Numbered from the stretch's first letter, positions 1 through 59,331 are shown. The stretch is 64,000 bases of DNA from an uncultured Verrucomicrobiae bacterium (GCA_963762565.1 CAVXLD010000003.1:800001-864000); one strand, 5' to 3'. A program made the numbers and translations. Notes: generated by a model not told the origin, from the sequence alone.

Positions 1-102
1 CCTCGTGCATTCCAAAGCGGCTCCCCTCCACGCGCTGGGCGGTCGCACATCGCATCAGCGCTTCGCGCCTAGACGGTTTTATCTGCGTCTATCTGCGGTC
101 AT

Positions 103-134
103 CCGCCTCCGCAAAGCCTGCGGCGCGACAGGTT
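103..134 (+). mobile_element. 32-bp micro-element (other copies 25541-25572, 29932-29963 minus, 38955-38986)
   Basis: CCGCCTCCGCAAAGCCTGCGGCGCGACAGGTT splits the third unit of an ATCTGCG tandem repeat. Confidence 0.7.
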
Positions 135-6020: not shown

Positions 6021-6368
6021 GTGGAGCGCTGCCTCGCTTGCGAGGCCGTGGTCATTGGTGGGGCGAGGCTCCGGATCTTCCTTAATGGATGCCAAGGCGG
6101 CTGTCCTGTTCCAATCTATCGCGGGCAACCCCTAAAGGTCGCCGAGCCGCGGCCCAGCGTATGCCCAGGTCTATGGTTCAGCCGAATCGCAACCTTGTAA
6201 AAGCTTCGTGCGCTGGATCGTAGCGACACCGTGGGCCCGGCTCGGCAACGCATCGGCCCTAAACACCAAATCTTCGTTCAACGTTGCAGTCCCTGGAATG
6301 CTGCAAAGGCCATGCAGGAGCCTCGCCCCACCATTGGGCAACGGCCTCGCAAGCGAGGCAACGCTCCA
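6021..6368. repeat. Nested palindromic intergenic element A[B[C..C']B']A'
   Basis: A=GTGGAGCGCTGCCTCGCTTGCGAGGCCG 6021-6048 / 6342-6368; B=TGGTGGGGCGAGGCTCC 6056-6072 / 6317-6333; C=GCCGAGCCG 6141-6149 / 6238-6246. Confidence 0.9.
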
Positions 6369-11014: not shown

Positions 11015-11387
11015 GGGCGAAACCGCGAAACGGCGAATGGGCGCACCGGCGAATGGGCGAAGGGGCGAAAGGGCGATACAGCGAGGAGTCGAGCTAGCAT
11101 TGGTGGGGCGAGGCTCCCGAAAGGCCTCACCGGGTTTTGTGGAACGATTGGTATTCGAGTGACAAAGGAAGGTCGTACACCCTATGCGCGCCGAGCCGTA
11201 CCCAGCGCTGGACTACGGCTCGGCGCGCTTACTGGCCTGGCCCATCCGAGTCAACTGGTATCCGTTCATTTTCCCTGGTTGAATGTTGCGGCCTCCCGGG
11301 AGCCTCGCCCCACCAATATCGGGGCCGGCCTATCATCCCATTCGCCCTTTCGCCGGTGCGCCCATTCGCCGTTTCGCCTATTTCGCG
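11015..11387. repeat. Nested palindromic element: GGCGAAnn tandem arms [B[C..C']B']
   Basis: Octamer arms 11015-11077 / 11337-11387; B 11101-11117 / 11299-11315; C 11190-11198 / 11216-11224. Confidence 0.9.
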
Positions 11388-23765: not shown

Positions 23766-24075
23766 TGCGAAACGGCGTGTGGGCGTATCGGCGAATGGGC
23801 GAAAGGGCGAAGGGGTAGCCACCGGTGGAGCGCTGCCTCGCTTGCGAGGCCGACTGCACAATGGTGGGGCGAGGCTCCGGATCTTCCTTAAATCGATGCC
23901 AAGGCGGCTGGCCTGCTCTAAATCTATGGCGGACGACCCCGAAAGGTCGCCGAGCCGCGGCCCAGCGTGTGCCCAGGTCTATGGCTGACCAGAATCGCAA
24001 ACTTGTAGGAGCTTCGTCCGCTGGATCACAGCGACACCGTGGACGCGGCTCGGCAGCGCATCGGCCCTAAACACA
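23766..24075. repeat. Partial nested element: octamer arm, A, B and the shared core
   Basis: A 23825-23852, B 23862-23878, then core homologous to 6073-6265. Confidence 0.85.
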
Positions 24076-24407
24076 CCCTAGCACAGGCAAAGAGGTCAAA
24101 CATCCGAATCAATATGTGTTTTGGGATGGTTTCCATCCAACCACCCGGGTGCACAAGTTAGCGGCTAAAACCTTTAAAAAAGGTGCAGCCTCTCTGGATG
24201 TAATGCAGATCGGAGCTAACCCATAGCGCCGAGAGTCGGAGTGAGAGGTGAGAAGTGATTGGTGATTAGTGGAGCGCTGCCTCGCTTGCGAGGCCGTGGT
24301 GAACGGAGCGTTATCGGCAAGTCGTGCCCCTTACTTGCCGCGCTCTATCGTTCTCAGTGAGAAAGTGTCAGCGATTCGGTGGTCGTGCGGATCGGCGTTG
24401 TCGGCGC

Positions 24408-25151
24408 TCACGGCGATACCGGCGATGTCGGCGTTGCGGGGGTTGCCGGAGTTCCCCGGGCCAATTTCTCAATCAAGACATTGACGATCAGACGGGCCGC
24501 TAGTCCGAACCCGCTTCGAGCGGTGTTGATGGTTAAATCGTAATTGGTCGGATCTTCCGTATCAGCTTCGAAATAGGTGCGAACATAGCGGCGGCGGCGT
24601 TCATCAGTTTCCCGGACTAGTCGCTCCGCTTTGTCCTGAGGGAGCTGATGATAGTCCGCGAAATTTCGGACCCGGTCGGGAAGGGGAGCAACTAAACGGA
24701 CGTGCAAGACATGAGGAAGCTGCGCCGTGATCGCGCTGGAGCCGCGCCCAACCAAAATTACATTTCCTTGCGCCGCCAGCCGGCGGATCGTGTCAACCGT
24801 ATGCTGCCGCAGCAGCCAATAAGAGGGATGTAGCCCCAGAACGGACTCCAATGCGTCCGTCAATGGGAGCTTAGCGTCTTCCGCTATATAACGTTCCATG
24901 CTGGTCGACAGCTGATGTTCTTGCAGGATGCGTAGCGCCAGATTCCGATCGAAGACCGTCCAAGCACGAGGAGGGTCACCCTGGTAATCCAGGTTCAAAT
25001 GTTCGGCAACCAGATTAGCGACCGTTAAAGCCCCTGCGCCGCTTTGCCGCGACAGGGTGATAGCTGGTTTTGGTCGTATTTCCGGTTTCTCGACGGGCGA
25101 AAACTGTGCACCCAGATAGCGCGCGAAGACGTCGGCTGACTTTCTGCTCAT
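24408..25151 (-). CDS. Cytidylate kinase-like family protein
   Basis: ITLSRQSGAG, VILVGRG, LHVRLVAP, D.RRRRY, YDLTINT. Confidence 0.85.
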   Translation of the reverse strand: MSRKSADVFARYLGAQFSPVEKPEIRPKPAITLSRQSGAGALTVANLVAEHLNLDYQGDPPRAWTVFDRNLALRILQEHQLSTSMERYIAEDAKLPLTDALESVLGLHPSYWLLRQHTVDTIRRLAAQGNVILVGRGSSAITAQLPHVLHVRLVAPLPDRVRNFADYHQLPQDKAERLVRETDERRRRYVRTYFEADTEDPTNYDLTINTARSGFGLAARLIVNVLIEKLARGTPATPATPTSPVSP

Positions 25152-25212
25152 AGCCTAGTACCTCAGATGTTTGGGGGAACGAAGTTCCGGAGAAGCGTAC
25201 ACCCATTTCGGA

Positions 25213-25627
25213 ACGCCGACAACGCCGTGATCGCCGCCAACGCCGACATTTGGTGGGGCGAGGCTCCCGCATACCGGAGGTGTCACGCAACGCTCAAGAC
25301 GACTTGTTCCTTTTGGCGTGCCGTCCCCTAACGGCTGCCGAGCCGCGTTCTGTAGTGTGCCACTGCCCAGTGCGCTTTCCCGTGCTTGGGTTAATCGTGT
25401 AAGGAACACGAAGGTGCCGAGCGCGTCCTCCTCGGTGCAATGATACGCAGCCCCGACGGCTCGGCAGCCTTCTGGCATAGCGCAGAGAAAAGGTGGAGCA
25501 CATCAAATGCGCCGTTGGCGTCTGTCGGTATTACCGGAGCCCGCCTCCGCCAAGCCTACGGCGCGGCAGGCCCTCGCCCCACCAATGCTGACCGGCGTTA
25601 CCGGCGTTACCGGCGCTGACGGCGTTG
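25213..25627. repeat. Nested palindromic element: 9-bp tandem arms [B[C..C']B' with 32-bp insert]
   Basis: ACGCCG/CGGCGT arrays; B 25251-25267; B' 25536-25584 interrupted at 25541-25572. Confidence 0.85.
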
Positions 25628-25735
25628 CACAGCGGGTCCTAAGGCACTACGTTTTCCGGACCGGCGCTCCGGTCGCGTTGCTGGGAACAAGTCGATGGAA
25701 ACGAACGCAGCTAAGGATGCCGGCAGGAACGACGT

Positions 25736-26398
25736 ATGCGGTTTCCAGACCGGTCTACAGCGGGTCAATTGTTAGCTCAAAAACTCGCCGGTTACGCTAA
25801 TAATCCGGACGTTGTGGTTTTAGCATTACCCCGGGGAGGGGTGCCGGTGGGCTTCGAGGTTGCCAAGTCCCTAAATGTTCCGCTGGATATTATCGTGGTT
25901 CGCAAACTAGGGGTGCCTGATCACGAAGAGTTAGCCATGGGAGCAATTGCAAGCGGCGATGTGCGCGTGCTGAACCATGACACCATCGATTGGTTACAGA
26001 TCCCGCAATGGATCATTGATCGAGTAACTGAATCAGAAAAAATAGAATTGGATCGCCGTGAAAAGACCTACCGAGGAAGCATTCCGCCACTCGATCTGGC
26101 GGAGAAAATTGTCATTCTGGTCGATGACGGCGTTGCAACCGGCTCCACTATGCGTGCCGCCGTGGCAGTGGTGCGTTCACGGAATCCACGACGCGTGGTG
26201 ATTGCTGTCCCTACCGCGCCGGTTTCAACCGCTGAAGAACTCAGAAATGTGGCGGATGACTTCGTTACTATAATTGCCACAGATGCCTTCGTCGGGGTAG
26301 GGCAATGGTATGAAAATTTTCGCCAGGTATCCGACGAAGTAACCCGTGAACTGTACGAACGCGCCAGATGTCGGCAGCTGCCGACCACGCAACCGTGA
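25736..26398 (+). CDS. Phosphoribosyltransferase family protein
   Basis: LALPRGGVPV, VRKLGVP..EELAMGA, VILVDDGVATGSTM PRPP motif. Confidence 0.9.
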   Translation: MRFPDRSTAGQLLAQKLAGYANNPDVVVLALPRGGVPVGFEVAKSLNVPLDIIVVRKLGVPDHEELAMGAIASGDVRVLNHDTIDWLQIPQWIIDRVTESEKIELDRREKTYRGSIPPLDLAEKIVILVDDGVATGSTMRAAVAVVRSRNPRRVVIAVPTAPVSTAEELRNVADDFVTIIATDAFVGVGQWYENFRQVSDEVTRELYERARCRQLPTTQP

Positions 26399-26614
26399 AT
26401 CCACGGACAAAGATAAATTATCCGCAGATTAACGCAGATTACGCAGATTTCGCTCTGGGCTTAGTTCACGCTGCAGACCAATGGAAACCGCTGAGCTACG
26501 CACAGGTCTCTAGCACCCTGATGTAATCGGCCTTTGAAACGTAATCTGCGTAATCTGCGTAATCTGCGGATATTATCTTCAGTTTGAACGTCAGCGAAGC
26601 CCAAGAGTCACGTC

Positions 26615-27334
26615 ATGATTCCAGAACCGTGTGTAGAACCCAGAAAAGCACTTTTGCTAGTTTATCGGCGAATTGACTTTGTGGGTAGATCTCAGGGCAG
26701 GAGTTTCAGACATTCGCTCTCGGATGTCGAAGTTGAAGATGCCATCGAATCATTTCGGCATTTTCCGGAATTAGTTACGGAACTGACTCACGGGTTGGTG
26801 GTTATCGAATGCGACATGGTGTCGGTGGAACGAAGCCTCGTCACTTTGACGGCGATCGGGCCTGATCAATACTGGCCGTCGCCAGACGACACGCGTCCGG
26901 AGCTCGACTCGTTTGCTCCGCGTGATCGTTACGATTCCGTCTTTGTTCTTTGGCCGCAGACCGACTTTTCAGCAGGACTCTCAATTCCCTCGGCTGGCTG
27001 GGGATTGGCTATTGCCGCCGGTCCTTGGTCGAATTGGGCAACCTACGCGACTGTCGCTAACGCGCGCTCAGCGACCTGGAAAGTGCCGCGGATCGGTGAA
27101 GTCTGGCTACATGAATGGTTGCACGGTGCGTGCGCCTACTTCGCAAAGCGAGGTTACCAGATGCCGGACGGCGATGCCGACGGTGGCGGCAGACACGGCT
27201 ACAAACAATTACCAGAGTCAGGTTGGAGCAACTATTATCGCGATCTCATGAGCGCCAATGTGTTGGAGAACGGCCGGCGCCTGGGAATTCCGTTGGAAGC
27301 ATGGCCAACGTGGGGAAGAGGAGCTAGGAGCTAG
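26615..27334 (+). CDS. Hypothetical protein with HExxH zinc-binding motif
   Basis: GEVWLHEWLHG; no other recognisable family motif. Confidence 0.65.
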   Translation: MIPEPCVEPRKALLLVYRRIDFVGRSQGRSFRHSLSDVEVEDAIESFRHFPELVTELTHGLVVIECDMVSVERSLVTLTAIGPDQYWPSPDDTRPELDSFAPRDRYDSVFVLWPQTDFSAGLSIPSAGWGLAIAAGPWSNWATYATVANARSATWKVPRIGEVWLHEWLHGACAYFAKRGYQMPDGDADGGGRHGYKQLPESGWSNYYRDLMSANVLENGRRLGIPLEAWPTWGRGARS

Positions 27335-27835
27335 GAGCTAGAATCTAGGAGCTAGAAGGGCGTGCTGCGGCTCGGCGACAATCGTTCTCGTCGTCGTCGT
27401 CCTCGAAAGAGTTGCGGGTCGATGCGGTGTGCGATCACCCAGCGCCTGGAGGGGAGCCGCTTTGGCGCTCATCTCGCCGCCCTAGCACATTTCGTCGCAA
27501 TGCCAATCCGGGCAAGGCGTGTGAAAACAAGCGGCTCCCGGAAACAACCCAGTGTGATGCATTTACCCGTGACTTTCGATTCGTTTAAACGCGGCCTGTA
27601 GAGCTGCGAGCCGCTGGATTATTCGCGGGAGCCGCCTGTTGCGATATTCTTTGGCCAAGGGAGCGCTGAACCAAATATCGCGGGGTCACCTATTGCGCGC
27701 CAAAGCGGCTCCCCTCCACGCGCTGGGTGATCGCACACCGCATCAACCCGCGACTCTTTCGAGGACGACGACGAGAACGAGAACGACTGTCTGCGAGCTG
27801 CAGCACGTCCTCCTACCTCCTAGCTCCTAGCTCCT
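27320..27835. repeat. Large composite inverted repeat (~140-150-bp arms)
   Basis: CTAGGAG arrays outside; 27383-27468 almost fully complementary to 27697-27779; another arm copy at 12-57. Confidence 0.9.
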
Positions 27836-27840
27836 CATCA

Positions 27841-29823
27841 TCAGAATCGCAATGAACCGTCCATGAAATGATACGTCTGACCGAACCACAACAGGACCCC
27901 GCATGCGGCAAGCAAAAGCAAAGTGTGGAGCCGGTTGAGCACGGTACCCTGTTGCCCGATCCAGAAATACAACGTCGCAATTCCGATCACGGCCACACCA
28001 CCGCCGGGGCCGATCCAGGCAAGCCAGTGGATTGTATTCAGCCAACGGTCCTGAGAAGAAGAGATCTGGGCTACATTATTGCTGATCTTGGCAAAGAACA
28101 GAAAGACCGCGACGGCAAAGGCGACGATGACCAAACACCAGAGTCGGGTAAGCAGATACAAGACCTTGGCTCCAGCATTGCTTTCGAACAAAGGCCGCTG
28201 ATATCGCCACCGAACGATCATGGCTAACGGAAACAACAGAGCGGTAATGCCAATCAGAGCAGCCGCCGCGCCGACCAGCCAAAGCACAAACGGACGGGAC
28301 TGTGTGAAGCTGACCCTTTGAAATACCCAGATCGGCCAAGAGGGGACGAGATCCGAGATTTCTTCATTCTGGCCATGGCGAAAGCCAATCATCTGTTCGC
28401 CATTAACTTCGCGATAGATCAAAGGAGCGACTTCCTGCCACCGGATCACTGTTCCTCGGTTGTCTTTAAACAAATCGATCGTCAGGACCCCGTTTGCGTC
28501 GGCATCCACTTTAACCTGCTGCGCTAGTCCCACCGAGCGCAGAATGCTGGATTCAGACCGGATACTCGGCTGGTAATAACCTTTCACCAACTCCCCGTCT
28601 TTGCTTTGCGATGTGATCGATTCCGTTGTGGTGGCCGGAGCCGGATAGTACCGGTCGAGGAATGCTTGAACGATTTCTTCCGGATTTAGTGTTTTATCAT
28701 TACCGGCGCTGTTGAGCGAAACGAAAAACCCGACCTTTTCGTCCGGAATAAGAATGAGATCGCTGTGGAAGTAGACAGTGTCACCTCCGTGTCCAATGAT
28801 TCGCGGGCCGGCCGGCCTTCGTTCTATGAATACAAGGCCCATGGCATTTAGTTTGGGATCAAGCACTAACACACGATCCTCCATTTTTTGCAGAGAATCC
28901 GGGTTGATAATCTGAGCGCCTTCTAATGCTCCTTCATTCAACAGCGCCGCCATGAAATGGCCCATATCGATACCGGTAGTCGAAAGGGCGCCAGCCGGAA
29001 CCGCCTGTACATATTCGAAACCACCGGGCGCATCCGTTGCCGTTTTGTATCCGTTGGACAGGTCGGGTAACAAGTCCTCCGGCAACGGTTGATCAAAGGT
29101 GCTGTGCTCCATCTGCAAAGGCCGGAAAATTTGATATCGGATATATTCCTTATAGGGCACACCGGATACCCTTTCGAGGATGTAGCCGGCGAGGGCCAAG
29201 CCGTAATTAGAGTAAGCAGGGACAGCACCCGGGGAGTAAATCCGATCCGGCATTTCAGCGATCAAGTAGTCTCTCAGCGGACGGAGCTCTTCGCGCCGGC
29301 TCACAAAGAGATTTCGAAGCCGCAGATCAAAACCTGCCGAGTGGGTGAGCAGGTTCCGCATCGTGATCGGCTGAAGGAACGTGGCTGGGATCTTGAAATC
29401 CAAGTAGTCATTAATGTCCCGATCCAGGTCGATTTTGCCATCCTCAACCAACTGCATTACTGCGATAGCCGTAAAAAGCTTGGTAATTGAGCCAGGACGA
29501 AACAGGGTACGATCGGGCACCACCGTTTGCCGGCGGGCGAAATCGGAGTAACCGAAACCTTTGCAGAGCAAGACTTGTCCATCCTTAACCACGGTAACAA
29601 CGCCTCCGGCGATATTGCGCCTGGCCAACTCCACGTTCATGAGCCCATCCAGGAAAGGTTCTAGATCCTGCGCCGTCAGTTTCACGGCAACGGGTTGCGG
29701 CGCCGGTGGCGGAGTTGCTGTCGGAAGAACGAACGGAGTAGGAGAGGCCGTTGATTGGTCAGTTTCTTGCGCGAGACCGGCAAAAGGGAAGAGCGCCAAG
29801 AGAAGTACAAAATAGCGATTCAT
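27841..29823 (-). CDS. Serine hydrolase (beta-lactamase/PBP family) with C-terminal membrane domain
   Basis: Signal peptide; SxxK (PGSITK), YSN and GHGG motifs; 4 C-terminal TM helices. Confidence 0.9.
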   Translation of the reverse strand: MNRYFVLLLALFPFAGLAQETDQSTASPTPFVLPTATPPPAPQPVAVKLTAQDLEPFLDGLMNVELARRNIAGGVVTVVKDGQVLLCKGFGYSDFARRQTVVPDRTLFRPGSITKLFTAIAVMQLVEDGKIDLDRDINDYLDFKIPATFLQPITMRNLLTHSAGFDLRLRNLFVSRREELRPLRDYLIAEMPDRIYSPGAVPAYSNYGLALAGYILERVSGVPYKEYIRYQIFRPLQMEHSTFDQPLPEDLLPDLSNGYKTATDAPGGFEYVQAVPAGALSTTGIDMGHFMAALLNEGALEGAQIINPDSLQKMEDRVLVLDPKLNAMGLVFIERRPAGPRIIGHGGDTVYFHSDLILIPDEKVGFFVSLNSAGNDKTLNPEEIVQAFLDRYYPAPATTTESITSQSKDGELVKGYYQPSIRSESSILRSVGLAQQVKVDADANGVLTIDLFKDNRGTVIRWQEVAPLIYREVNGEQMIGFRHGQNEEISDLVPSWPIWVFQRVSFTQSRPFVLWLVGAAAALIGITALLFPLAMIVRWRYQRPLFESNAGAKVLYLLTRLWCLVIVAFAVAVFLFFAKISNNVAQISSSQDRWLNTIHWLAWIGPGGGVAVIGIATLYFWIGQQGTVLNRLHTLLLLAACGVLLWFGQTYHFMDGSLRF

Positions 29824-29919
29824 TTTGAATGGACCGTTTCTCGAACGTCGTCGGCTCAATTGAGCCGCCGGGCAATATAGTAGACGACGGAAGTCGCTCC
29901 CAGTTTCTTTGCGCCTAAT

Positions 29920-30356
29920 TGGTGGGGCGAGGGCCTGCCGCGCCGTAGGCTTGGCGTAGGCGGGCTCCGGATCTTCCTGAAATGGATGCCAAGGCGGTTG
30001 CCCTTCTCGAATCTATGGCGGACAACACCGAAAGATCGCCGAGCCGCGGCCCGGCGTGTGGCCACATCCACAGTTTTGGTAGGGCGAGGCTCCGGATCTT
30101 CCTCAAAGCTTGATCAAGGCCATTGCGCTTACCAGATCTGCGGCGACCATCGGCGAACGGTTGCCTAGCCGCGGCCCAGCGCCTGTCCAGATCCACAGTT
30201 GACCCGAATCGCAACCTTTGTAGGACGTTCGGGCGCTGGATCAGAGCGACACCGTGGGCGCGGCTCGGCGGCGGATTGGCCCTAAATACGAAATCATGGC
30301 TCAACGTTGCAGCCCTTGGAATGCTCCAAAGGCCATACGGGAGCCTCGCCCCACCA
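29920..30356. repeat. Tandem partial plus complete copies of the B-bounded ~280-bp element
   Basis: B with insert 29920-29968; B 30077-30093; B' 30340-30356; cores homologous to 6073-6316. Confidence 0.9.
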
Positions 30357-30412
30357 ATGTCTTTCGCGGTTTCAATATCGCCAACCCGCTACGCGGATGC
30401 TTTTCGGACTTG

Positions 30413-30593
30413 GCGCAGTACTCCAACACTCCCGCACTCCATCACTCCGCGAGGCCGGATTCGAGGACAGCCTGTCCGCCGTAGCCCACGGTCTATGTTG
30501 CCACCGCTCGAAGTCGGCCTCGCAAGCGAGGCGCGCTCCACACCAAGGAGTCGGCGAAGGCGGAAGGACGACGAGGACGAGAACGAAACGCCC
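30413..30593 (+). repeat. Composite repeat E (ACTCC array + GGATTCGAGGACGACG..GAGAACG) carrying nested insertions
   Basis: Uninterrupted versions at 32672-32758 (minus) and 9638-9680; related composite at 62553-62723. Confidence 0.85.
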
Positions 30594-30598
30594 ATAAC

Positions 30599-31708
30599 CT
30601 ACAACCGATGATCCCCGAACGGCCCGGAATACGCCGCTGCAGTTTGCTTCGGCAAATGGTCCACCGGCAGCAAAGGAAACAGCAATTCCGCGACCCGATA
30701 GGCCTCTTCCAAATTGGGGTATCCCGAAAGAATAAAACACTCGATTCCGAGCGCGGCGTATTCTTTCATTCGAGTTGCCACGGTCTCCGGATTTCCGACT
30801 AGCGCGGTGCCGGCGCCGCCACGGACTAAGCCGACTCCCGCCCAAAGATTCGGACTAATTTCCAGGCGGTCGCGTCTCCCACCGTGCAGTTGGCTCATTC
30901 GTTTCTGCCCTTCGGAGTCGAATCGCGCAAAAGTCTTTTGGGCAGCAGCGATACTTTCGTCGGAAACGTAACGCAAAAGATCATCCGCCGCTTGCCAGGC
31001 TTCTTTGTCGGTCTCACGGACGATGACGTGCACCCGCAAACCAAACCGCAAAAATCTCCCGAAGGAGGCGGCTAACTCCTGTACTTCAGCGATCTTAGCC
31101 GCAACCGCATCAGGTGGTTCTCCCCAGGTGAGTGAGACATCCACATGCTCGGCTGCGATCCGATGGCCCGCCGGAGAAGCACCGCCAAACCAGAGTTCTG
31201 GATATGGCTTTTGCACGCCGGGTCGAAAAAGTTTTGCATCCTGCACCTGCAAATAAGCGCCATTGAAATCGACCGACTCACCCGCAAGTACCCGACGAAA
31301 GATTTTGAGAAACTCACCCGTCAGCGCGTATCGCTCATCATGTTTCAAATGTAATCCGTCTCCGGCAAGTTCCACCGGGTCGCCGCCAGTAACAACGTTG
31401 AGCAGCAATCTGCCGCCGGAGTACTGGTCGAATGTCGCCACCATTCGCGCGGCCATCGTCGGCGTCATTAATCCAGGCCGGACCGCGATCAAAAAACGCA
31501 TCTGTTGGGTGCACGAGATGAGCGCAGACGCCGCGATCCAAGAGTCATCGCAGGTTCGGCCGGTGGGCAATAAAGCACCGTAAAAACCCAGGCTATCGAC
31601 CGCCTCAGCAATCTGGCGCAGATAGGCAAAGTTGGTATCTCGCGCTCCAAGAGCCGACCCGAGGTGCCGGCCATCGCCGAAAGTTGGGAGAAACCAGAGT
31701 AATTTCAT
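30599..31708 (-). CDS. ssuD: FMNH2-dependent alkanesulfonate monooxygenase
   Basis: [57 protein letters not shown]. Confidence 0.95.
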
Positions 31709-31735
31709 CTAACGTTTCGTTCTTGTGGGCTAGGG

Positions 31736-32854
31736 CTAGTCTGGAATCCGCACCACAGCGTCTGCGACCTGGATCGTTTTCGGAATCAGTTTTAACCCAA
31801 AAAAGGTATCGCCGATCGTCTGTTGATCAGAAACGACCTGATCGCTGATGGATTGAAATCCCCACGGCGTGGCGCGGACCACTTTGTTGATCACTGCTTC
31901 GCTCATCCCGAGCTGCGGAGCCAAGTAGTGAACTACCTCCTCAGGCTTCGTCGTTACCCAGGTTCCAGACCGGTTAACGGCATCCCGGACAGCTAACAAG
32001 ATGTCGGAGTGCGCTTGTGCGAAACGACGATCGGCCAGGAAGAATTCTCGATTCGCGGCGACTCCTTCTGCATCCTGCAAAATACGCGCACCGGACCTGT
32101 CAACGGCCGCCGTCATATACGGATCCCAGATGACCCAGGCATCGACACTGCCTCCTTCGAGCGCCGCCCAGGCGTCCGCCGGCGTTAGATACGCCGGGGT
32201 TATCTCGTCCATCTTAAGCCCATACTTCTCCAGCAGTTTTACCAGAAAGAAATGGACATTGGATCCTTTGTTAAGCGCGATGCGTTTCCCCTTCAGGTCC
32301 GACACATTCTGAATCGGGGAGTCCTTCTTGACCAACACACCTTCTCCTTTCGGAAATGGGGGTTGATTGCCGAAATAAACCAGGTTCACACCCGCTGCTT
32401 GGGCGAAAATCGGTGGTGCTTCACCAGTATTTCCAAAGTCGATACCGTCAGCATTCAAAGCTTCAAGGAGTTGCGGGCCGGCCGGGAAAAGGATCCAGGT
32501 TACGGCGATCCCGCGCGCAGCTAACGATTTCTCAAAGCTGCCCTCAGCCTTGAGAACATTCAGCGTGCCATACTTCTGATACCCAATACGAACCGCAGCC
32601 AATTTTTGGTCTTCGGCGTGTGTGAGTGAAACTAACGCTAGAAATGCTCCACAAAGGACAGCGCTCACCCAGCGCTTCGTTCTCGTTCTCGTCCTCGTCG
32701 TCGTCCTCGAATCCGGCCGCGCGGAGTGATGGAGTGTTGGAGTGCTGGAGTATTGCGCTATGTCCGAATTGCACTCGGCGGGTGGGGGGGTGAGGGGGCT
32801 GAAGGCGATGTCCAAACTCTTCAGGGCGCGATCATCTTGCAGATTTAACTCCAT
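31736..32854 (-). CDS. ssuA: Aliphatic sulfonate ABC transporter substrate-binding protein
   Basis: RIGYQKYG, FPAGPQLLEAL, TGEAPPIFAQAAG, KGSNVH, VDAWVIWDP; adjacent to ssuD; N-terminus contains a repeat module so the start is uncertain. Confidence 0.9.
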   Translation of the reverse strand: MELNLQDDRALKSLDIAFSPLTPPPAECNSDIAQYSSTPTLHHSARPDSRTTTRTRTRTKRWVSAVLCGAFLALVSLTHAEDQKLAAVRIGYQKYGTLNVLKAEGSFEKSLAARGIAVTWILFPAGPQLLEALNADGIDFGNTGEAPPIFAQAAGVNLVYFGNQPPFPKGEGVLVKKDSPIQNVSDLKGKRIALNKGSNVHFFLVKLLEKYGLKMDEITPAYLTPADAWAALEGGSVDAWVIWDPYMTAAVDRSGARILQDAEGVAANREFFLADRRFAQAHSDILLAVRDAVNRSGTWVTTKPEEVVHYLAPQLGMSEAVINKVVRATPWGFQSISDQVVSDQQTIGDTFFGLKLIPKTIQVADAVVRIPD

Positions 32855-32991
32855 ATCTAGGACGCTACCGTTTCAGTTGTTTCATCCCTTGTCGCGAATA
32901 GGCGCAATTGGAACTCTATCAATTAAGTAGACATTGCAACCGGAAAAAAACGACTCGCGCACCGTCCGGTTGTCATCTATCCGTACACGTG

Positions 32992-33579
32992 ATGTGTTTC
33001 GGGTTTGGGTTGCAGTCGTTTCTTTTCTGCGTCTACGCCATCCTCTTTGCATTCGCGCCGTTCTTGACTCGGCCGGCTCAGGCCGACGACATCACGGCGA
33101 CGGACGGCAAAGTGTATCACCACGTTGAGGTTCTCACTCGGAACGCTTCGGCCATGTTGATTCGAAGCGATGAAGGCGAAACCGCGCTTTCGTACAATGA
33201 CTTGAAACCAGCTGACCGGGATAAATACTCCAAGACCCTCGCGAAATCGATCGAACTACCGGCGCTGACGGTTATCGGCGAAAAACCGACATTCCTCCAA
33301 GATTCGACCAGTTCGAAGGAGTTCAACGCGGCTCAGAAAGAGTTTAATAAAGCCATCGCGGAAAAGAAACAAGCTGCCCAGGATAAGAAACTGCATCCGG
33401 AATACAAACCGATCCAGATGTTCAATGGCGGCCTCAACCTCAGTCTGGGAGGATCGAATAATCTGGTTGAAGGCGGCCTCCAGCCCAGTTATCTCGGCCT
33501 GCAATACCAGCAGCTCTCGCCCAACATCGTCGAAAAAGACCTGAAAATTTTCGACGATGCGATCAACGGGAAACAATAG
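32992..33579 (+). CDS. Secreted hypothetical protein
   Basis: Hydrophobic leader ending AQA, then DDITATDGKVY; clean ORF divergent from ssuA. Confidence 0.6.
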   Translation: MCFGFGLQSFLFCVYAILFAFAPFLTRPAQADDITATDGKVYHHVEVLTRNASAMLIRSDEGETALSYNDLKPADRDKYSKTLAKSIELPALTVIGEKPTFLQDSTSSKEFNAAQKEFNKAIAEKKQAAQDKKLHPEYKPIQMFNGGLNLSLGGSNNLVEGGLQPSYLGLQYQQLSPNIVEKDLKIFDDAINGKQ

Positions 33580-33754
33580 CGCGACCTCGCCGTAGGCTCG
33601 CTCGCGAATGACAGATGACAGATGGCAAATGACAAATTTGCCATCCCTTGGATAAACCGGCGCGTCCCACAGCAGGTGGACTTTCCCCAGCGTTTCGATC
33701 TGTCATTTGTCATTTGTCATTTGTCATCGAACGAGCTTCAGGCGAGTTCGCGTA

Positions 33755-34249
33755 ATGAGTTGGATGAACGCGGTCGAGTTCTCGTTCTACCTGGTCGAGA
33801 CCTTTGCCCTGCCTTTCGCAATCCTGGTTTACGTTTTCGAGCGCCGCAAAGAACGGATCGCCGACCAGGAAGAGCTCTATCAACGTCTCTCGGACGAATA
33901 CACGAACTTTCTCAAACTGGTGCTCGATAATGCGGATCTGCAGCTCTTGAGCAAACAGGCGCCGCTTCGTGAGCTCAGCGAAGAACAGAAAGAACGCCGG
34001 CTGGCGCTTTTCGGAATCCTGGTCTCGATCTTCGAACGAGCCTATATCCTGGTTTACGAAGAACACATGGATAAACAGACCAAGCGGCTATGGTCCTCGT
34101 GGGAGGATTACATGCGGGAATGGTGCCAGCGTACGGACTTCAGAAAAGCTTTACCGGAGCTCTTAGAAGGAGAAGACCCAGATTTTCGAAAGCACATCGA
34201 ACAGGTTGCGCGAAGCTCGCCTGAGGCTCGCTCCGCGAATAGCCAATAG
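33755..34249 (+). CDS. Hypothetical protein with N-terminal membrane anchor
   Basis: Clean ORF with one TM helix and a helical domain (FERAYILVY, WEDYMREW). Confidence 0.7.
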   Translation: MSWMNAVEFSFYLVETFALPFAILVYVFERRKERIADQEELYQRLSDEYTNFLKLVLDNADLQLLSKQAPLRELSEEQKERRLALFGILVSIFERAYILVYEEHMDKQTKRLWSSWEDYMREWCQRTDFRKALPELLEGEDPDFRKHIEQVARSSPEARSANSQ

Positions 34250-34411
34250 CCAATAGCCAATAGCCAATGACGACGGTAGGATGAGGTTACTGGAATGGGC
34301 ATCAAGGTTCGCGTTCGCCACATTGCCGATTCACCGAACCGCTAAAACGGCTCATTGGCTCCCATCCTTTGGCTATTGGCTATCGGCTATCGGCTATTCG
34401 CGGAGCGCGGC

Positions 34412-34759
34412 TTGAACTCCTCAAACTCCGCGAACTATACTATCGTTCTGAAAACGCTCGGATTTATCAGCTTTTTCTTGATCATGAATGGTTCGCCCCT
34501 CTTTGCAGGACCAGTGCAATTTACTGGTGGGAATGGCAGCTCTTTGGAATCCGCTGTTGTTATCAGCGGCGCCAAACACGAAAGCGACGGCATCAGCGCC
34601 GAACATCGGTATCTATCCGAACACTTCGCTTCTTGGTTTCTAAAACGCCAGGTACTCGTGAACCAGAAAGGCCGGGTCTACGATCGGATGGAAATCACCG
34701 ATCAGAACGGGAAACAGCGCTCGGTTTTCTTCGACATCACCGATTTTTTCGGCAAATAG
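34412..34759 (+). CDS. Small secreted hypothetical protein (start uncertain)
   Basis: GGNGSSLESAVVI..GISAEHRY..QVL..YDRME..VFFDITDFFGK; hydrophobic leader. Confidence 0.6.
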   Translation: MNSSNSANYTIVLKTLGFISFFLIMNGSPLFAGPVQFTGGNGSSLESAVVISGAKHESDGISAEHRYLSEHFASWFLKRQVLVNQKGRVYDRMEITDQNGKQRSVFFDITDFFGK

Positions 34760-34781
34760 TTGCTTTTTGCATTCGTCTCTA

Positions 34782-35864
34782 ATGTCTCGAGCAGTTCATC
34801 ATCGCGAAGTTACCATGACAGATGTCGCGGCCCGGTGCGGCGTCTCGTATCAAACCGTCTCCCGGGTGGTCAACGAGATGCCCGAGGTCGCTGAAGCTAC
34901 TCGTACCCGGGTTCTCCGCGTCATCGAACAACTCGGTTACCGGCCCAATATGACCGCGCGTCATCTCGTCAGCCGGCGTTCAACGGTGCTTGGTCACGTC
35001 GGTTTCGCGATTGGACTCTATGGACCCTCCCAGATGATGGTCAACGTCGAGGAATCAGCTAAGCAGGCCGGTTACAGGGTCATGTTTACTGGGGTACTGG
35101 ACCCCAATATTAGCGAGATTTCCCGGGCAGTGAATGAGCTCTGCTCGCATCGGGTCGCCGGCATCTTGATCTATCTGCCGCTGGAGATGGACCTGAGTGT
35201 CTTGCGCAGTCTTTGTCAGAACATCCCGATAGTGGCCATGGATTCAGACCTTAATTTCAAGACCCTTGCCGTGATGGTGCAACAGAAGAGCGGTTCCAGG
35301 ATCGCGACGGAGCATCTCATCAATCTTGGGCACCGGCGAATTGCGTGTATCCGGGCTTCGCAGGCTTGGAGACCAGGTCGCTTACGTTATCAGGGATGGC
35401 TTTCCGCTTTGAAAGAAGCAAACCTGATTCCCGGACCTTGTGTGGAAGGGGACTGGTCACCGCTAAGCGGATTTCAGGCAGCCCAGACTCTGATAAAGGA
35501 TCACTGGGGCGAATTCACGGCTTTGGTCGTGGCAAACGATCAAATGGCGTTGGGAGCAATTTGCGCCTTTCACGAAGCCGGTATCTCGGTCCCGAACGAT
35601 ATCTCGGTTGTCGGGTTCGACGATATCCCCGAATCCGGTTATTTCTTGCCGCCGCTCACCACGATCCGCCAAGATTTCCCCAGGGTCGGTAAGCTTGGTG
35701 TTCAATGTTTGCTTGAAGAAATCCGCTCCGCCGCGCGCAGCACTCGGACCTACACGATCGTCCCGACCCTAATACAACGTGCCAGCACCGCCCGTCCGAA
35801 AAAGAAGTCCCAACGACCGGCCAGAAGTAAGAACGGAAGCGAAAACCACGCTCAGGCGAAATAG
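34782..35864 (+). CDS. LacI family transcriptional regulator
   Basis: TMTDVAARCGVSYQTVSRVVN HTH, LGYRPN, NDQMALG, ISVVGFDD, PPLTTIRQD. Confidence 0.95.
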   Translation: MSRAVHHREVTMTDVAARCGVSYQTVSRVVNEMPEVAEATRTRVLRVIEQLGYRPNMTARHLVSRRSTVLGHVGFAIGLYGPSQMMVNVEESAKQAGYRVMFTGVLDPNISEISRAVNELCSHRVAGILIYLPLEMDLSVLRSLCQNIPIVAMDSDLNFKTLAVMVQQKSGSRIATEHLINLGHRRIACIRASQAWRPGRLRYQGWLSALKEANLIPGPCVEGDWSPLSGFQAAQTLIKDHWGEFTALVVANDQMALGAICAFHEAGISVPNDISVVGFDDIPESGYFLPPLTTIRQDFPRVGKLGVQCLLEEIRSAARSTRTYTIVPTLIQRASTARPKKKSQRPARSKNGSENHAQAK

Positions 35865-36407
35865 CAGGGTTGCCACCCGTGGAGCGCTGCCTCGCTTGCG
35901 AGGCCGTGGTGAGCAGGGAGACGTTGGTTCCGATGCTCTTGCTCGCTCTGCGCTTTATCTTAGGCAAGGTGCGGTCGGATCAACGATCGGAAGACGTCGT
36001 TTCGCATGATTACGTTAATTAGCCCGCCCAAGTGTAGAGAGGCGAATCAATACCGCGCCTGAAAAATCCAAGCAAAAGAATAGCGAGGCACTCACCATTT
36101 TAATCCGAATACCGCACGGGTAAGTTCGTGGCTTAATCGCGAAGTTAGCAAAATCCTCCAGCTGGAGTTAGCAGATCAGCCTCCGCCTGAAAGAGGTGTC
36201 AGGTACTCTCGAGTGTTAACCGTACCGCTCCGGGGATAGGCGCTGTCGCGTTTCGAGGCCACGTGCTTAGGCGCAAATGAATATAGGATGGATGCGCTGG
36301 TCGCAGTCCTGTTTAAGCGATCTGTGACTGTTCCAAAACCACTTCTTTCGCTTTCTTATCGTCTCTCCAGCCTAGGAACGTGGTCTGGCGTAGCTGGTCG
36401 TCAGCGG

Positions 36408-36890
36408 TTAATTCAGCGTAGCCGTAGTGGCGGAGTTCGCCATTGGTGTAAGCACCGAGCACGACAGCACCCAGATGCTTCCGGCTTCCTTTGGGCGCAT
36501 CGGGTTACCCGTAAGGTCATCTCCGTTATACCAAAGGACGTCAAAGACGTAGGAGAGAGTCGGCGCCGTGGGTTGCTTTTGGAACCTTTGCAAAAGCTGA
36601 AAACGCGGGATCCCATTTTTATCAACGGCGACAATTTCACCATCGAGAATGGTCGAGCGCAGCTTTAGCTTAGAGACCGCGGTCGCCACGGCCGGGAATT
36701 TCGCTTCCAATGCCAGGCCGTTTCGCGACCAGAGGTGCGGCTTGCCGGCCGCATCGAAAACGGTGATCGCCCGGTAACCATCGAGCTTGATTTCGAAGAT
36801 CCAATCTGGCGAGTCAAAGGGAGTTTTTGCGCTCTCCGCCGATCTTACACTCAGAGGTGACCCTTGGATCTCGTTTTTCCGTTCCCTCAA
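36408..36890 (-). pseudogene. ATP-dependent DNA ligase (LigD-type ligase domain) fragment
   Basis: Motifs I (EIKLDGYR), III (LDGEIV) and IIIa (YVFDVL) present; motifs IV-V absent and similarity stops after DDLTG. Confidence 0.8.
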
Positions 36891-36899
36891 AGCGAAGTT

Positions 36900-37697
36900 T
36901 CATAACCGCGAAAGCAATTCGGTCTTCTTGGATTTGAACTCGTCGTCGGAGAGAATACCCTTCTGATGCAGGTCGGCGATGCGTTCAAGCGCCTTCAGGA
37001 TGTCGTCGTGAGATTGAAGTGAGCTGCCAGAGCCCTGGCGCGAGATCGCGACCGGAGCGGCTGCAGCCTCTGCAGTCTCCTGGGATGGGGCGGTGGGTTC
37101 AGCGACGGCCTCACCCCCGCCAGGACTTTCCAGTGACAGAGTGTCAACGCCGAACGTTCCGTATTGACTGCTGAACGTTAGAGAGCCTGAGTAGCCTCCC
37201 TGCTGTTGCTGCACGCCCGTAATCTGGTGGTTCAGGGTGTTGTACAGTCTGATCTTCCCGTTGTGCAAAATAGCGAGCCGCTGCCTTTGCGGAAAGTAGG
37301 CGTAGCGTGCGTCGTTTTGCCCGCCGCTGGAGCTTGGGTTGCCCAACTCAGCGGGCCACCAGGCATTGCCTGGAGCGATCAAGCCGCCGACCTCGCTCTG
37401 CTTAGGCAGTGGAACAAAGAGTTGTTGAGAACTGAGAAGCGATGAAAGCTCCGAGCACAACCCACTCACGGTCGCTTTCAGGCCATGGTTAAACATGTCG
37501 CCGACCATAGTCATTCCACCGCTCATCCACTGACCGTTGCCGCCCAATTCAGGGTGGTAAAACTGCGCCAATGTCCCGCCTCCCGCCGCCACTGCAAAGA
37601 GGAGAGTTCGCACGGCGTCGACGCTGACGCCATAGCGTTGCGCCAAGCCTTGTATCGCTTGGTGCCCATCTGGTGTAAGAACCCGGGTTGAAGCCAT
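36900..37697 (-). CDS. SHOCT domain-containing protein
   Basis: C-terminal ALERIADLHQKGILSDDEFKSKKTELL; AQFYHPELGG.GQWM and WWPAELG motifs. Confidence 0.85.
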   Translation of the reverse strand: MASTRVLTPDGHQAIQGLAQRYGVSVDAVRTLLFAVAAGGGTLAQFYHPELGGNGQWMSGGMTMVGDMFNHGLKATVSGLCSELSSLLSSQQLFVPLPKQSEVGGLIAPGNAWWPAELGNPSSSGGQNDARYAYFPQRQRLAILHNGKIRLYNTLNHQITGVQQQQGGYSGSLTFSSQYGTFGVDTLSLESPGGGEAVAEPTAPSQETAEAAAAPVAISRQGSGSSLQSHDDILKALERIADLHQKGILSDDEFKSKKTELLSRL

Positions 37698-37929
37698 ATT
37701 TGATACTTTTACCGAACGCTCGGGAAGCCCGGAGACTTCTCGAAATGGACTACGTCAATGCGTCGCCGGTCATCGTGTGAATTGCTTGTGAAGATTGCGA
37801 TGCGTTTGGTCGATTGAATGTGAACCGGCAGAATTTCCGCCCGGGAATAGCAAGCGTCAATGATGGAATAGCGAGCACCGTCTCAAATGCGCTCTAATCG
37901 GATCCTAGAGCGTTTTTCTTGACGTCAGA

Positions 37930-38036
37930 CTATTCCTCGATCAGAGCGCTCTCAAAGATCGATCTCGAACCAAATCCTGGGTGATCGGGGCGCCAGAGGC
38001 ACCAGCGGTTTCATCCTCGTCTTCGACCTGGGTAGG
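37930..38036. repeat. Imperfect ~100-bp direct repeat, copy 1 (copy 2 at 38820-38925)
   Basis: Both copies begin CTATTCCTCGATCAGAGC..TCAAAGATCGATCTCGAA. Confidence 0.85.
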
Positions 38037-38255
38037 AAGGAACGCCGGGCCCGTGACCTCGTCGCTATCCTCTTCCTTAAGAAGCTAGCAGACACGGTTA
38101 ATGAACTATAATTCCATGGACGGCTCACCTTCAGCCTCGTAGTGTCAAAATAGCAAAAATACTTTCTGATTAATAGTGAGAGCGCATCGAAAAGCAATCT
38201 CAGGCCGGTGCAACTAGCTCTATCTTACTGGAAACTGAATTTAACGAAGAAAAAT

Positions 38256-38813
38256 ATGAACTCTGATCTTCTTCTCGGTTCGGTGAGAAAGGCAAGTGGT
38301 TGGTCAACGGTTTGGGGGGTACTCATGGTGATTTGTGGCCTCCTAGCCATTACTCTTCCGTTGGCCACATCTACTGGCATTGTAATTTTACTCGCCTGGC
38401 TGATTCTGTTCGCAGCCGTAGCCCATTTGATATTTGCTTTTCATTCGCACAGCATTGGCGGGTTTCTGTGGAAGGTCCTGCTCGCGGTCCTGTACGGATT
38501 CGCGGGTTTCTTTTTGCTAGCGAACCCAATAGCCGGCGTCGCTTATCTCACCCTTCTCCTCGGCGCCTTCCTCCTGGTCGAAGGCATTATCGAAATTGTC
38601 CTTTACTTTCACATCCGCAAAATCGCTCATGCCGGCTGGGTGCTCTTCGACGGTATCCTAACTCTTCTGCTAGGCTTCTTCATATGGGCCCACTGGCCGT
38701 CAAGCTCGGCCTGGGTAATCGGGACGTTGGTTGGCATCAGCCTGATCTTCAGCGGTATTTCCAGATTCATGCTTTCGTTAGCGATCCGTCGCCACATGGC
38801 GACTAACAGCTAA
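38256..38813 (+). CDS. HdeD family (DUF308) membrane protein
   Basis: Two DUF308 halves; WPSSSAWVIGTLVGISLIFSG. Confidence 0.85.
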   Translation: MNSDLLLGSVRKASGWSTVWGVLMVICGLLAITLPLATSTGIVILLAWLILFAAVAHLIFAFHSHSIGGFLWKVLLAVLYGFAGFFLLANPIAGVAYLTLLLGAFLLVEGIIEIVLYFHIRKIAHAGWVLFDGILTLLLGFFIWAHWPSSSAWVIGTLVGISLIFSGISRFMLSLAIRRHMATNS

Positions 38814-38819
38814 TAAGTT

Positions 38820-38925
38820 CTATTCCTCGATCAGAGCACCCTCAAAGATCGATCTCGAATCAAACCCTGAGTGATCGGGCCGCCAAAGACACCATCGGTC
38901 TTCATCCTGTTCTTCAATTGCTAGG
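38820..38925. repeat. Imperfect direct repeat, copy 2
   Basis: Aligns by eye with 37930-38036. Confidence 0.85.
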
Positions 38926-39055
38926 TGAATCAGTAGGTGAGTTCTGCGTTCCTCCCGCCTCCGGCAAGCCTTCGGCGCGGCAGGCTGTCTTCGACCTGGT
39001 AGGGAGTTGCAATCTTTCATCAACAACATTACCTCCTTTGGTGGGGCTCTTTACC

Positions 39056-39664
39056 ATGTTCCTTGGAGTTACTTTTCTGGCCGCTTTGACGCCCGGTTTA
39101 GCGGTTATGCTGGTAACCTCGTACTCGTTAGACCGCGGGCTCGGTCGGGCTTGGCAGGCAACCTTGGGGATCGAAGTTGGGAACGCGGTTTTCGTGCTCG
39201 CCTCAGCCACCGGTCTTACCGCTCTGCTAATGGCGTGTGCTCCGCTGTTTACAGTGGTGCGGTGGTGCGGTGTGGTTTATCTCATCTTCCTCGGGGCTAT
39301 GCTGCTGATTTCGGCGTTCCGATCGACAGCTGTCGCGGCGAAAATGCCCCAGACAAAAAGTCTCCATCCAATAGCGCAAGGGCTTACGACACAGCTAGGT
39401 AACCCGAAAGCATTACTCTACTGGACTGCATTGTTTCCGCAATTCATCGACCGGACCCATCCGCCGTTTGCGCAATTTCTGGTCTTCGGAATCGTCACAA
39501 TCTGCGTCGAAACTGTCGTTCTGACCGGTTACGCATTCGCGGCCGCTTCACTCCGTCGCGCGGTGTCTCGGCAGCTTTTTATGCAACGGCTGCTCAAGGG
39601 CGTTACGGGATGTTTCTTTATTCTGACCGGCCTGCTGCTCGGCCGGAGAACAGCAAACGCGTAA
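39056..39664 (+). CDS. LysE/RhtB family translocator
   Basis: ALTPG, G..YLIFLG, GLTTQLGNPKALLY, ALFPQFID; start may be a few codons upstream. Confidence 0.85.
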   Translation: MFLGVTFLAALTPGLAVMLVTSYSLDRGLGRAWQATLGIEVGNAVFVLASATGLTALLMACAPLFTVVRWCGVVYLIFLGAMLLISAFRSTAVAAKMPQTKSLHPIAQGLTTQLGNPKALLYWTALFPQFIDRTHPPFAQFLVFGIVTICVETVVLTGYAFAAASLRRAVSRQLFMQRLLKGVTGCFFILTGLLLGRRTANA

Positions 39665-39825
39665 CGTCGTCGGGAGACAAATCCTCGTGCCTCTCGCCTC
39701 TCACTATGAGGCACCATAGACGTGATAGGCCGAACATGAACCCGCTGCGATAGACGGACTGAACTGCAAGCTCACACTCATCCGGGCTGCTTTCTTTACA
39801 AGCTTTGAATGGAATCGCTCACCAT

Positions 39826-58992: not shown

Positions 58993-59331
58993 TCATCATC
59001 CTACAACGCCCTCCCCACTTCGTCGCTTCGTTTGATATCTCAGGCGGTTGACGCGGTTTCTACCGCCCTTTCAGGGCGGTCCGCCTTTTGGAATCGATAA
59101 CCTGGGGTTAAAACCCCAGGCTGAGTCCTGTCATCCCTTCGGGATAAGTCCGACAAGTTCCACTCTCCTATTATTTCCATTTCGTCGCATCACAGAAGGT
59201 AATTCACCCATCCCCCATCTTCGAAAACTGCCGATCGTGCATTTTTCACAGTATATCCTTGAACGCCGCGACATCTCTTAATACTAAGGGCGCCAGCCGT
59301 CCGTGGCGTCGCCCAAAACCGACGGCAACAA

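Follow-up and report, generated by a model that had tools for sequence, protein, structure and literature searches.

Small dispersed repeats (SDRs) of cyanobacteria, which Elhai et al. are said to have described in 2008, reportedly consist of units of 21–27 nucleotides (nt) that are precisely inserted in other repeats, including heptamer arrays, and that occur in filled and empty versions without target duplication, some of them forming hairpins. We know of no enzyme assigned to them. Insertion sequences (IS) of the IS200/IS605 type transpose as single-stranded DNA (“peel and paste”), carry two subterminal hairpins around a gene, leave no target duplication, and show a replication-strand bias. 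Here we describe a 32-nt repeat that invites comparison with both, found in a stretch of 64,000 nt from an uncultured Verrucomicrobiae bacterium (GCA_963762565.1, CAVXLD010000003.1:800001-864000), referred to below as the window. It equals G000:C3:800001-864000, where G000 denotes the source genome (a 6.1-Mb assembly of 15 contigs); other G numbers denote relatives or other Verrucomicrobiota genomes, and L numbers denote extracted loci.

Further points of comparison come from repetitive extragenic palindromic (REP) sequences and REP-associated tyrosine transposases (RAYTs). Di Nocera et al. (2013; PMC3733652) describe GTAG REPs of Thermomicrobium (GTAG-23) inserted within small palindromes that also exist in hundreds of empty copies, and an abundance of GTAG REPs in Opitutus terrae (Verrucomicrobia), many of them in frame inside genes. 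According to Bertels and Rainey (2011; PMC3116915), the replicative, mobile unit of REPINs is a REP doublet, and singlets are decayed remnants. Our search for literature on REPs or RAYTs in Verrucomicrobia turned up only the first of these papers, and the motif of the element studied here had no match in the paper texts searched.

The element is a discrete insertion unit with clean orthologous empty sites, is conserved across the phylum, and has been amplified in the genus of G000. It is among the smallest mobile-looking repeats known.

Copies, Boundaries, and Empty Sites

The four copies originally predicted in the window are all present at the expected positions and on the expected strands. 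Each matches the degenerate 32-mer pattern with zero mismatches, and 0 matches are expected by chance, none having been found in 100 dinucleotide-preserving shuffles of the window. In the whole of G000, allowing up to 6 substitutions yields 118 copies, allowing up to 7 yields 137, and a profile search (nhmmer, E ≤ 0.01) yields 172. Across the set of 137, which underlies the statistics given below, conservation jumps abruptly at a sharp left boundary, and the base preceding the element (position 0, here Y0) is a pyrimidine in every copy (T in 86, C in 51). Element positions 1–30 are strongly conserved and the right side decays over positions 31–34. On either side, background conservation is reached within 1–4 nt of the element. 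A crude map of open reading frames (ORFs) places 104 of the 137 copies outside ORFs of at least 110 aa. The two ends are not inverted repeats of each other, and comparison of filled with empty junctions gives a difference of 32 ± 1 nt and a repeat of no more than about 1 nt, in agreement with the early description of an element without terminal inverted repeats (TIRs) or clear target duplication; it is thus no miniature inverted-repeat transposable element (MITE) as defined by a TIR plus a target-site duplication.

For an excision test we fused the 8 nt left of each copy to the 8 nt right of it, with boundary shifts from −6 to +6, and sought the resulting 16-mer elsewhere in the genome. Removal of exactly 32 nt restored a known 16-mer for 49 of the 137 copies at shifts (0,0), 49 at (−1,−1), 28 at (−2,−2), and 18 at (+1,+1), compared with 9–17 copies per cell when 33 or 31 nt were removed and 0–5 in cells more than one step off the diagonal, barring a periodic band due to tandem arrays. 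Sorted by insert length, 60 copies were restored at 32 nt, 28 at 33 nt, and 20 at 31 nt, and any removal of 31–33 nt yielded sequence found elsewhere for 80 of the 137. Slots with strictly defined flanks were also counted genome-wide. Boxes of the GGAGC/CTCGCCCCACCA type (TIR-B boxes) number 443, with 426 empty and 9 filled, every filled insert being exactly 32 nt long. Hairpins of the form GCCTCGCTT/GCGAGGC number 267, with 242 empty and 18 filled by an insert of 30–33 nt, nearly all of them core or core-like. Because of the excision test and these slot counts, we regard the insert as exact to within about one base, its right end being slightly ragged (30–33 nt). The original prediction of a unit of exactly 32 bp therefore applies to the TIR-B boxes but not to the hairpin loop, where length varies; moreover, the pyrimidine that precedes every copy belongs to the functional hairpin. 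Ragged or variable copies, which it had named as counting against itself, are seen to a slight degree at the right end, and its statement that removal restores the host holds for the 80 copies above and for two orthologous sites described below.

At least eight flank families host the element in G000, more than the three target contexts first proposed. They include the box GGAGC/CTCGCCCCACCA, which is the terminal part of palindromic elements of ~200–440 nt; the loop of the hairpin GCCTCGCTT/GCGAGGC; and junctions in tandem arrays of ATCTGCG, TGAACTCC, GTCCTC/GTCGTC, TTTGCGC, CGAATGG, and TATGGGAC-type words. The largest flank family has the form GGATGGGAT/element/CTATGGGAC. Identical 32-mers are found across three different host types, and no longer target motif common to all host families was found beyond the single pyrimidine. 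Pairs of neighboring copies within 3 kb number 19, about seven of them inverted with a gap of up to 800 nt (in one doublet, G000:C12:498846/498883, the two copies lie 5 nt apart); the other copies of the 137 are singlets.

Within the window, copy 1 (102..134, plus strand; Y0 at 102, core at 103-134) lies in an ATCTGCG heptamer array about 70 nt upstream of an ORF that starts at 202. Copy 2 (25540..25572, plus) occupies the right-arm box GGAGC/CTCGCCCCACCA of a palindromic “B” element of ~330 nt, and the left-arm box of the same element, GGTGGGGCGAGGCTCC (25252..25267, plus), 289 nt upstream, is empty. The arrangement is mirrored at copy 3 (29932..29964, minus; Y0 at 29964), which sits in the left-arm box of a ~440-nt B element whose right-arm box GGAGCCTCGCCCCACCA (30340..30356, plus) is empty and serves as an internal control. 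Among 11 filled B elements, a partner box is detectable in 6, and all 6 partners are empty. Two more empty GGAGCCTCGCCCCACCA boxes occur at 6317..6333 and 11299..11315 (both plus); direct reading of these and of the box at 30340 bears out the uninterrupted palindromes that had been listed there. An empty example of the second host, the hairpin GCCTCGCTT/GCGAGGC, whose loop holds the element elsewhere in the genome, is at 6031..6046 (plus). Copy 4 (38954..38986, plus) interrupts TTCCTC/GTCTTCGACC in a ~190-nt repeat upstream of paralogous genes.

The check suggested with the original prediction, an alignment of filled and empty orthologous sites, gave clean empties in congeners. Five congeneric genomes, largely syntenic with G000 and 72–89% identical to it in neighboring genes, were available for comparison. 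At site 1 the element is absent from all three congeners examined (G002, G003, and G005), upstream of the same gene in each: G000 reads ATCTGCGGTCAT/element/CTGCGGTT, G003 and G005 read ATCTGCRTCCAT/CTGCGGTT, and G002 reads TTTAT/CTGCGGTT. At site 3 it is likewise absent from all three examined (G002, G003, and G004), beside the 5′ end of the same gene, where AGTTTCTTTGCGCCTAATTGGTGGGGCGAG/element/GCTCCGG in G000 corresponds to TTGGTGGGGCGAG/GCTCC in the others; BLAST alignments of all three terminate at window position 29932. G003 and G004, with 43 and 68 copies, have no insert at any of the four window loci, which indicates that the species carry copies at different places. In the distant genome G233, a GGGAC/GGCTCC context carries the motif and an uninterrupted copy lies 600 nt away.

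Sites 2 and 4 are less simple. For site 2, only G002 retains a corresponding box, diverged and empty, and the intergenic DNA of G003 and G004 could not be aligned. For a comparison at strain level, contigs of four soil sequencing runs (X5–X8) were placed on window positions 24000-40000. One X5 contig, ~95% identical, joins 25541 to 25611 with 18 letters in place of 69, which fits, but does not prove, an empty site 2 plus two fewer 9-nt units. Other joints near 29911-29963, with short sides or undetermined intervening letters, were left aside. A metagenome scan with the predicted empty site-2 junction gave no match, and a scan with a conserved anchor gave one contig, equal to the G004-type orthologue. 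At site 4 the uninterrupted CCTC/GTCTTCGACCTGG that had been pointed out at 38015 (38015..38031, plus) is present on direct reading, but a further 46 nt are absent there as well, which makes this paralogue the poorer control. The precise empty host is found in G003, where locus L119 is uninterrupted at TTCCTC/GTCTTCGACC and L122, L123, and L124 are filled at that point.

The ~190-nt site-4 host repeat has, on its minus strand (window 38818-38954 and 37880-38014), a possible small conserved ORF of ~24 codons with the start ATGAAGACC, upstream of two tandem paralogous genes.

Hairpin Structure and Distribution

Judged from covariation, the 32 nt together with the preceding pyrimidine form a hairpin unit. 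The supported stem has 6 bp, joining positions 0–5 with 20–26 around a bulged C24. Its loop of 14 nt is conserved in sequence (TYCGCMAAGCCTAC, or GTAGGCTTKGCGRA as the reverse complement), and beyond the stem comes a CAGGYY tail. In a test set drawn from the window and from over 20 further genomes (47 sequences, of which 35 are distinct), 96.2% of the cells of this stem are paired, vs. 91.2% after shuffling (0 of 500 shuffles reach the observed value) and 28–51% in slid controls. The closing pair 0–26 is T-A in 81 copies, C-G in 50, T·G in 5, and C·A in 1, and both states are present inside several flank families. Pair 4–21 is C-G in 116 and A-T in 17 of the 137 copies and G-C in G335; pair 2–23 is G-C in G258 and G272; and pair 3–22 is T-A in a diverged subfamily occupying the same hairpin-loop slot. 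Position 24 varies freely, as expected of a bulge. The tetranucleotide CTAC (positions 16–19), conserved in 134, 134, 114, and 128 of the 137 copies, lies inside the loop of the supported stem.

Other foldings were considered and rejected. A GTAG-tagged alternative stem (3–7/12–16; 81% paired) and a minimum-energy-like fold do no better than shuffles (98 and 100 of 500, respectively), and neither has covariation support. For a pseudoknot between CCTR (15–18) and CAGG (27–30), position counts show that the variable positions do not covary.

The closing pyrimidine belongs to the host in some cases (the hairpin loop supplies it as the T of CTT, the box as the C of GGAGC), and yet it matches the purine at position 26 (R26). 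This match could arise if the element lands only behind a base that pairs, or if selection repairs the pair later; the T·G intermediates favor repair but are not decisive.

At other places (e.g., G000 C14:157004 and C12:257322), the occupant of the GCCTCGCTT/GCGAGGC loop is a diverged sister hairpin, CCTCCGTCGCTAAAGCTATGGAGGAC, whose stem is altered on both strands relative to the 32-nt element.

At up to two mismatches, the 30-mer was found in 13 of 41 relatives, with 100 copies in G000, 68 in G004, 43 in G003, 16 in G020, and 1–7 in the others. In a sample of 401 genomes across the phylum, 24 (17 of 185 genera) carry the motif at up to three mismatches, and a reversed control pattern gave 1 match. 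A carrier genome usually has 1–11 copies, compared with 43–125 in three species of the genus of G000. G020 and G012 carry the element in reverse orientation inside the loop of a related CCGAC-type hairpin, the first hairpin of the ~112-nt module described below. Inverted pairs 4–10 kb apart in G020 were considered as transposon ends and ruled out, being copies of one composite repeat.

The element also occurs in coding sequence. In G272, which belongs to another family, its reverse complement is read in frame as PRRSLGEGG directly before the G/FTL cleavage motif, at the end of the leader peptides of a GspG-type pseudopilin and an adjacent pseudopilin-like ORF (L113:1546-1575 and 2036-2065; G272:C1:3249845 and 3250335). 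One of these pseudopilins matches T2SSG (7.9e-27) and N_methyl (6.5e-05).

Two arrangements of related hairpins were seen along the way. A module of ~112 nt has a CCGAC-type core-like hairpin at its start and a second, inverted core-like unit at its end (G000:C3:268491-268973, C3:300565-300674, and C3:607939-608050; L001 and L009–L012 in G020), and sits within palindrome arms of the GGTAGGGCGAAAA/TCTCGGCGCG type; in G000 the module is uninterrupted. The G233 copies (L114:1300-2280) adjoin GGAGCGCGGGCATCTTGCCCGC-type hairpins and flank a ~400-nt AT-rich segment with a possible small ORF.

Proposed Movement in Trans and Its Alternatives

The element encodes no gene, so any movement must be in trans. 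On balance we favor the reading that it is a gene-less, REP-like hairpin micro-repeat that is copied or moved in trans, as a unit, into structure-prone DNA. It would land in the loops that other hairpin repeats form, at one set point of the box that ends palindromic elements of ~300 nt, and at the junctions between units of 7–9-nt tandem arrays, and insertion would leave no target duplication longer than about one base. The agent might be a nuclease or transposase that acts on single-stranded DNA and recognizes the hairpin and its loop, with an HUH Y1 (RAYT-like) enzyme as a first guess and a PD-(D/E)xK “GxxExxY” nuclease as a second. The 5′ neighboring pyrimidine would be used, or afterwards selected, to close the stem with R26. 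The original prediction of a minimal non-autonomous unit moved in trans stands as far as a discrete, gene-less unit of ~32 nt is concerned, but not for every copy, as part of the copy number is co-amplification with host repeats and tandem slippage rather than separate insertion.

Several results weigh against movement in trans. Three of them concern the insertions themselves. Core variants track flank families, and two copies around a GxxExxY gene are the identical rare variant, from which it follows that many copies are not independent insertions. The largest flank family, GGATGGGAT/CTATGGGAC, is almost without empty counterparts. Nor is the direction of change rooted by a species tree, so that at any single site the congeners might in principle have lost the element. 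Others concern strand and structure: orientation is balanced with respect to GC skew (59 vs. 55) and unbiased with respect to neighboring genes (21 vs. 30 in tandem gaps), predicted folding energies are ordinary (z from −1.6 to −0.05), and minimum-energy structures differ from the covarying stem.

The remaining points of this kind come from the search for an enzyme. G000 has 12 PF01797 (Y1) hits, and none of the 10 listed hits that were checked for proximity has an element copy within 9 kb. Its RAYT-like genes of ~150 aa are bracketed by GTCCCGNAGGGAC..GGTAGCCTGGCA-type or CGGAGGGGCGTTGCATTCCG repeats rather than by the element. In the profile search, one copy lies ~270 nt downstream of one of four 353-aa Y1-domain ORFs, and this gene is not bracketed. 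No Y1 hit adjoins a copy in G233, G258, G272, G392, or G407, and only 1 of 30 RAYT loci of relatives has a copy within ±1.5 kb. Among GxxExxY homologue loci, 2 of 21 have a copy nearby (the G000 C11 locus and one other).

The RAYT link of the original prediction was accordingly dropped: no Y1 or RAYT gene is bracketed by the element in the six genomes checked (G000 and the five others), a result from incomplete assemblies that could hide a gene. The copies also lack the strand bias that a fork-linked mechanism of the IS200/IS605 type might leave. TIR-B boxes were also absent from all RAYT loci retrieved. The 353-aa ORF with an N-terminal Y1_Tnp domain at C1:531653-532711 is followed by six tandem GTGGAGCGCTGCCTCGCTTGCGAGGCCG hairpin units of ~44 nt (G000:C1:532742-532999), with the element in the outermost of the six; three paralogous ORFs are without such arrays. 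As for the second candidate, a PD-(D/E)xK GxxExxY gene (PF13366, 1.1e-38) at G000:C11:64884-65312 lies between inverted ATCTGCG arrays that both hold the element and a second, 22-nt hairpin, and an extra inner right arm is empty (G000:C11:64713-65517, L080:1330-2134). Orthologues with 80% identity in G002 and G004 are flanked by arrays that lack the element, and at 18 further homologue loci no such bracketing occurs, so the nuclease was rejected as a regular partner; in view of the orthologous arrays and the low count of loci with a copy, the association is an insertion into the arms of this GxxExxY cassette.

A scan of the window at Rfam gathering thresholds has as its sole match Acido-Lenti-1 at 59101-59146 (45.5 bits), with none at the element. 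The matching sequence has a CCTGGGG..CCCCAGG plus second-hairpin design, the same as that of inverted repeats bracketing RAYT genes in G000 (G000:C1:118882-118971 and 119473-119560; G000:C7:408584-408632). This shared design suggests that the Acido-Lenti-1 family may be a RAYT REP rather than an RNA gene.

The best-surviving alternative to movement in trans, which we think has a real but minor chance of being correct, involves no dedicated mobility. The 32-mer would be a “word” of modular, nested-palindrome repeats that spreads by recombination, gene conversion, template-switching, and slippage, and apparent insertions would be short conversion tracts seeded by flank homology. The variants that track their flanks fit this well, as do the identical copies on both arms of the GxxExxY cassette and the head-to-tail arrays of 31- and 33-nt units. 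Junctions also show a microhomology of 1–2 nt (94 of the 137 copies carry the same base at positions 0 and 32, with ~64 expected), and site 4 and the GTCCTC arrays have the local target TCCTC/GTCYTCG in common. A further point is the 22-nt micro-hairpin TTCACCCCGGAGAATTTCGGGG (78 copies in G000 at up to three mismatches, e.g., C3:604251, C3:604591, C3:718214, and C1:1182805), which occupies the very same point of ATCTGCG arrays as the element (GCGTCCAT/insert/CTGCGGTT): of 187 such array sites, 87 are empty and 29 hold the 22-nt hairpin, and slots thus accept more than one kind of hairpin. Against this stand the contexts with unrelated flanks, at least eight in G000 with other hosts in distant genera, each of which needs a first event independent of homology. 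Identical 32-mers in three host types and boundaries that are equal in all contexts also speak against it, and phylum-wide conservation with compensatory stem changes points to recognition of the hairpin.

A bolder form of movement in trans, which we consider rather unlikely, would make the 32-mer the complete minimal substrate of a phylum-wide single-strand insertion system run by an enzyme other than a linked RAYT (a dispersed HUH enzyme or GxxExxY), with the site chosen by R26 pairing and exposed loops as landing pads. Elements with A26 would then land after T, and those with G26 after C. If true, this would be the smallest self-defined transposition substrate, with a one-base “guide.”

It is unlikely, in our view, that the element is primarily a host-useful structured motif under selection, that is, a protein-bound RNA or DNA hairpin with a role in transcript processing or stability or in the nucleoid or replication, whose dispersal is secondary. 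Such a motif could explain why the loop hardly varies and stem covariation extends over classes of the phylum, why the closing pair is more often T·G than C·A (5 vs. 1, the excess that folding of the listed strand predicts), why most carriers have few copies (1–11), and why the reverse complement is in frame in the leaders of two adjacent type II secretion system (T2SS) pseudopilin genes of G272. It accords poorly with the lack of orientation bias relative to neighboring genes, with carriers making up only 24 of 401 sampled genomes, with four window loci that are dispensable in congeners, and with a placement that follows other selfish repeats rather than gene classes. Folding energy is unremarkable, and no Rfam family matches; scanning the 321 nt around copy 2 at permissive settings produced nothing beyond a chance match to isrG (E 4.4).

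Very improbable is a decayed fragment of something larger without identity as a unit (a CRISPR repeat, an IS or MITE end, or a coding fragment such as a pilin leader), a notion encouraged by the related CCGAC variant in the ~112-nt module, by the coding occurrence in G272, and by a length of 32 nt and a reverse complement beginning with GTCGCGCC, features that we take to be reminiscent of some CRISPR repeats, but opposed by copies that are single or directly abutting rather than in spaced arrays, by conservation that falls to background just beyond both sides, by G000 copies that do not lie beside pilin-type coding sequence, and by the lack, in the genomes searched, of any full-length parent element or CRISPR array with the element as its repeat.

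Relation to Known Families

In behavior the nearest match is the SDRs, compared here by their reported behavior rather than by sequence: a unit of less than 40 nt is precisely inserted in repeats and heptamer arrays, and empty versions exist. The element differs from them in phylum and sequence and is slightly longer; it also has empty sites in congeners, phylum-wide compensatory stem changes, and a closing pair partly supplied by the target. It resembles IS200/IS605 elements in having neither target duplication nor TIRs, in its hairpin recognition element, and in insertion 3′ of a defined base, and the match of R26 to the base just outside the left end recalls their pairing of guide and cleavage site. 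Unlike them, it is a single 32-nt hairpin with only one constrained target base (the pyrimidine), no replication-strand bias, and no linked tnpA.

Like GTAG REPs, the element is a short hairpin repeat (a 33-nt unit, within the 20–40 nt of a REP) with 137–172 copies that are mostly intergenic, and in its reverse complement a GTAG precedes a short palindrome (GTAG-GCCTT-GGCG-AAGGC in the variant found phylum-wide). Insertion in palindromes with many empty copies and occurrence in frame are paralleled too. The supported stem, in contrast, puts GTAG in the loop instead of at the foot of the stem, and no RAYT is bracketed in the six genomes checked. The REP peptides of O. terrae given in the supplement of PMC3733652 are unlike translations of the element, a comparison by peptides and not by consensus sequences. 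With REPINs, which Bertels and Rainey hold to be moved in trans by a single-strand transposase, the element shares its character as non-autonomous hairpin DNA, a few inverted doublets, and the ~112-nt module built from two inverted core-like units. It departs from them in that singlets dominate, are well conserved, and are themselves the unit found at new sites, with only about seven inverted pairs among the 137 copies, and in that no flanking RAYT was found. Since it brackets no Y1 transposase gene in the six genomes, the element falls outside the REP-RAYT and REPIN systems as defined, and it is best filed as a new family of the REP or small-dispersed-repeat kind.

How REPs and smaller dispersed repeats move is still unsettled, and the element is an unusually clean case: one hairpin of 32 nt whose filled sites have exact empty orthologues in sister species, palindromes with one empty arm as internal controls, a stem established by compensatory changes across the phylum, and bursts in three species at different loci. 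For annotation, such elements and their hosts take up much of the intergenic space in soil Verrucomicrobiota, where they yield spurious ORFs, and they can also be in frame in real genes.

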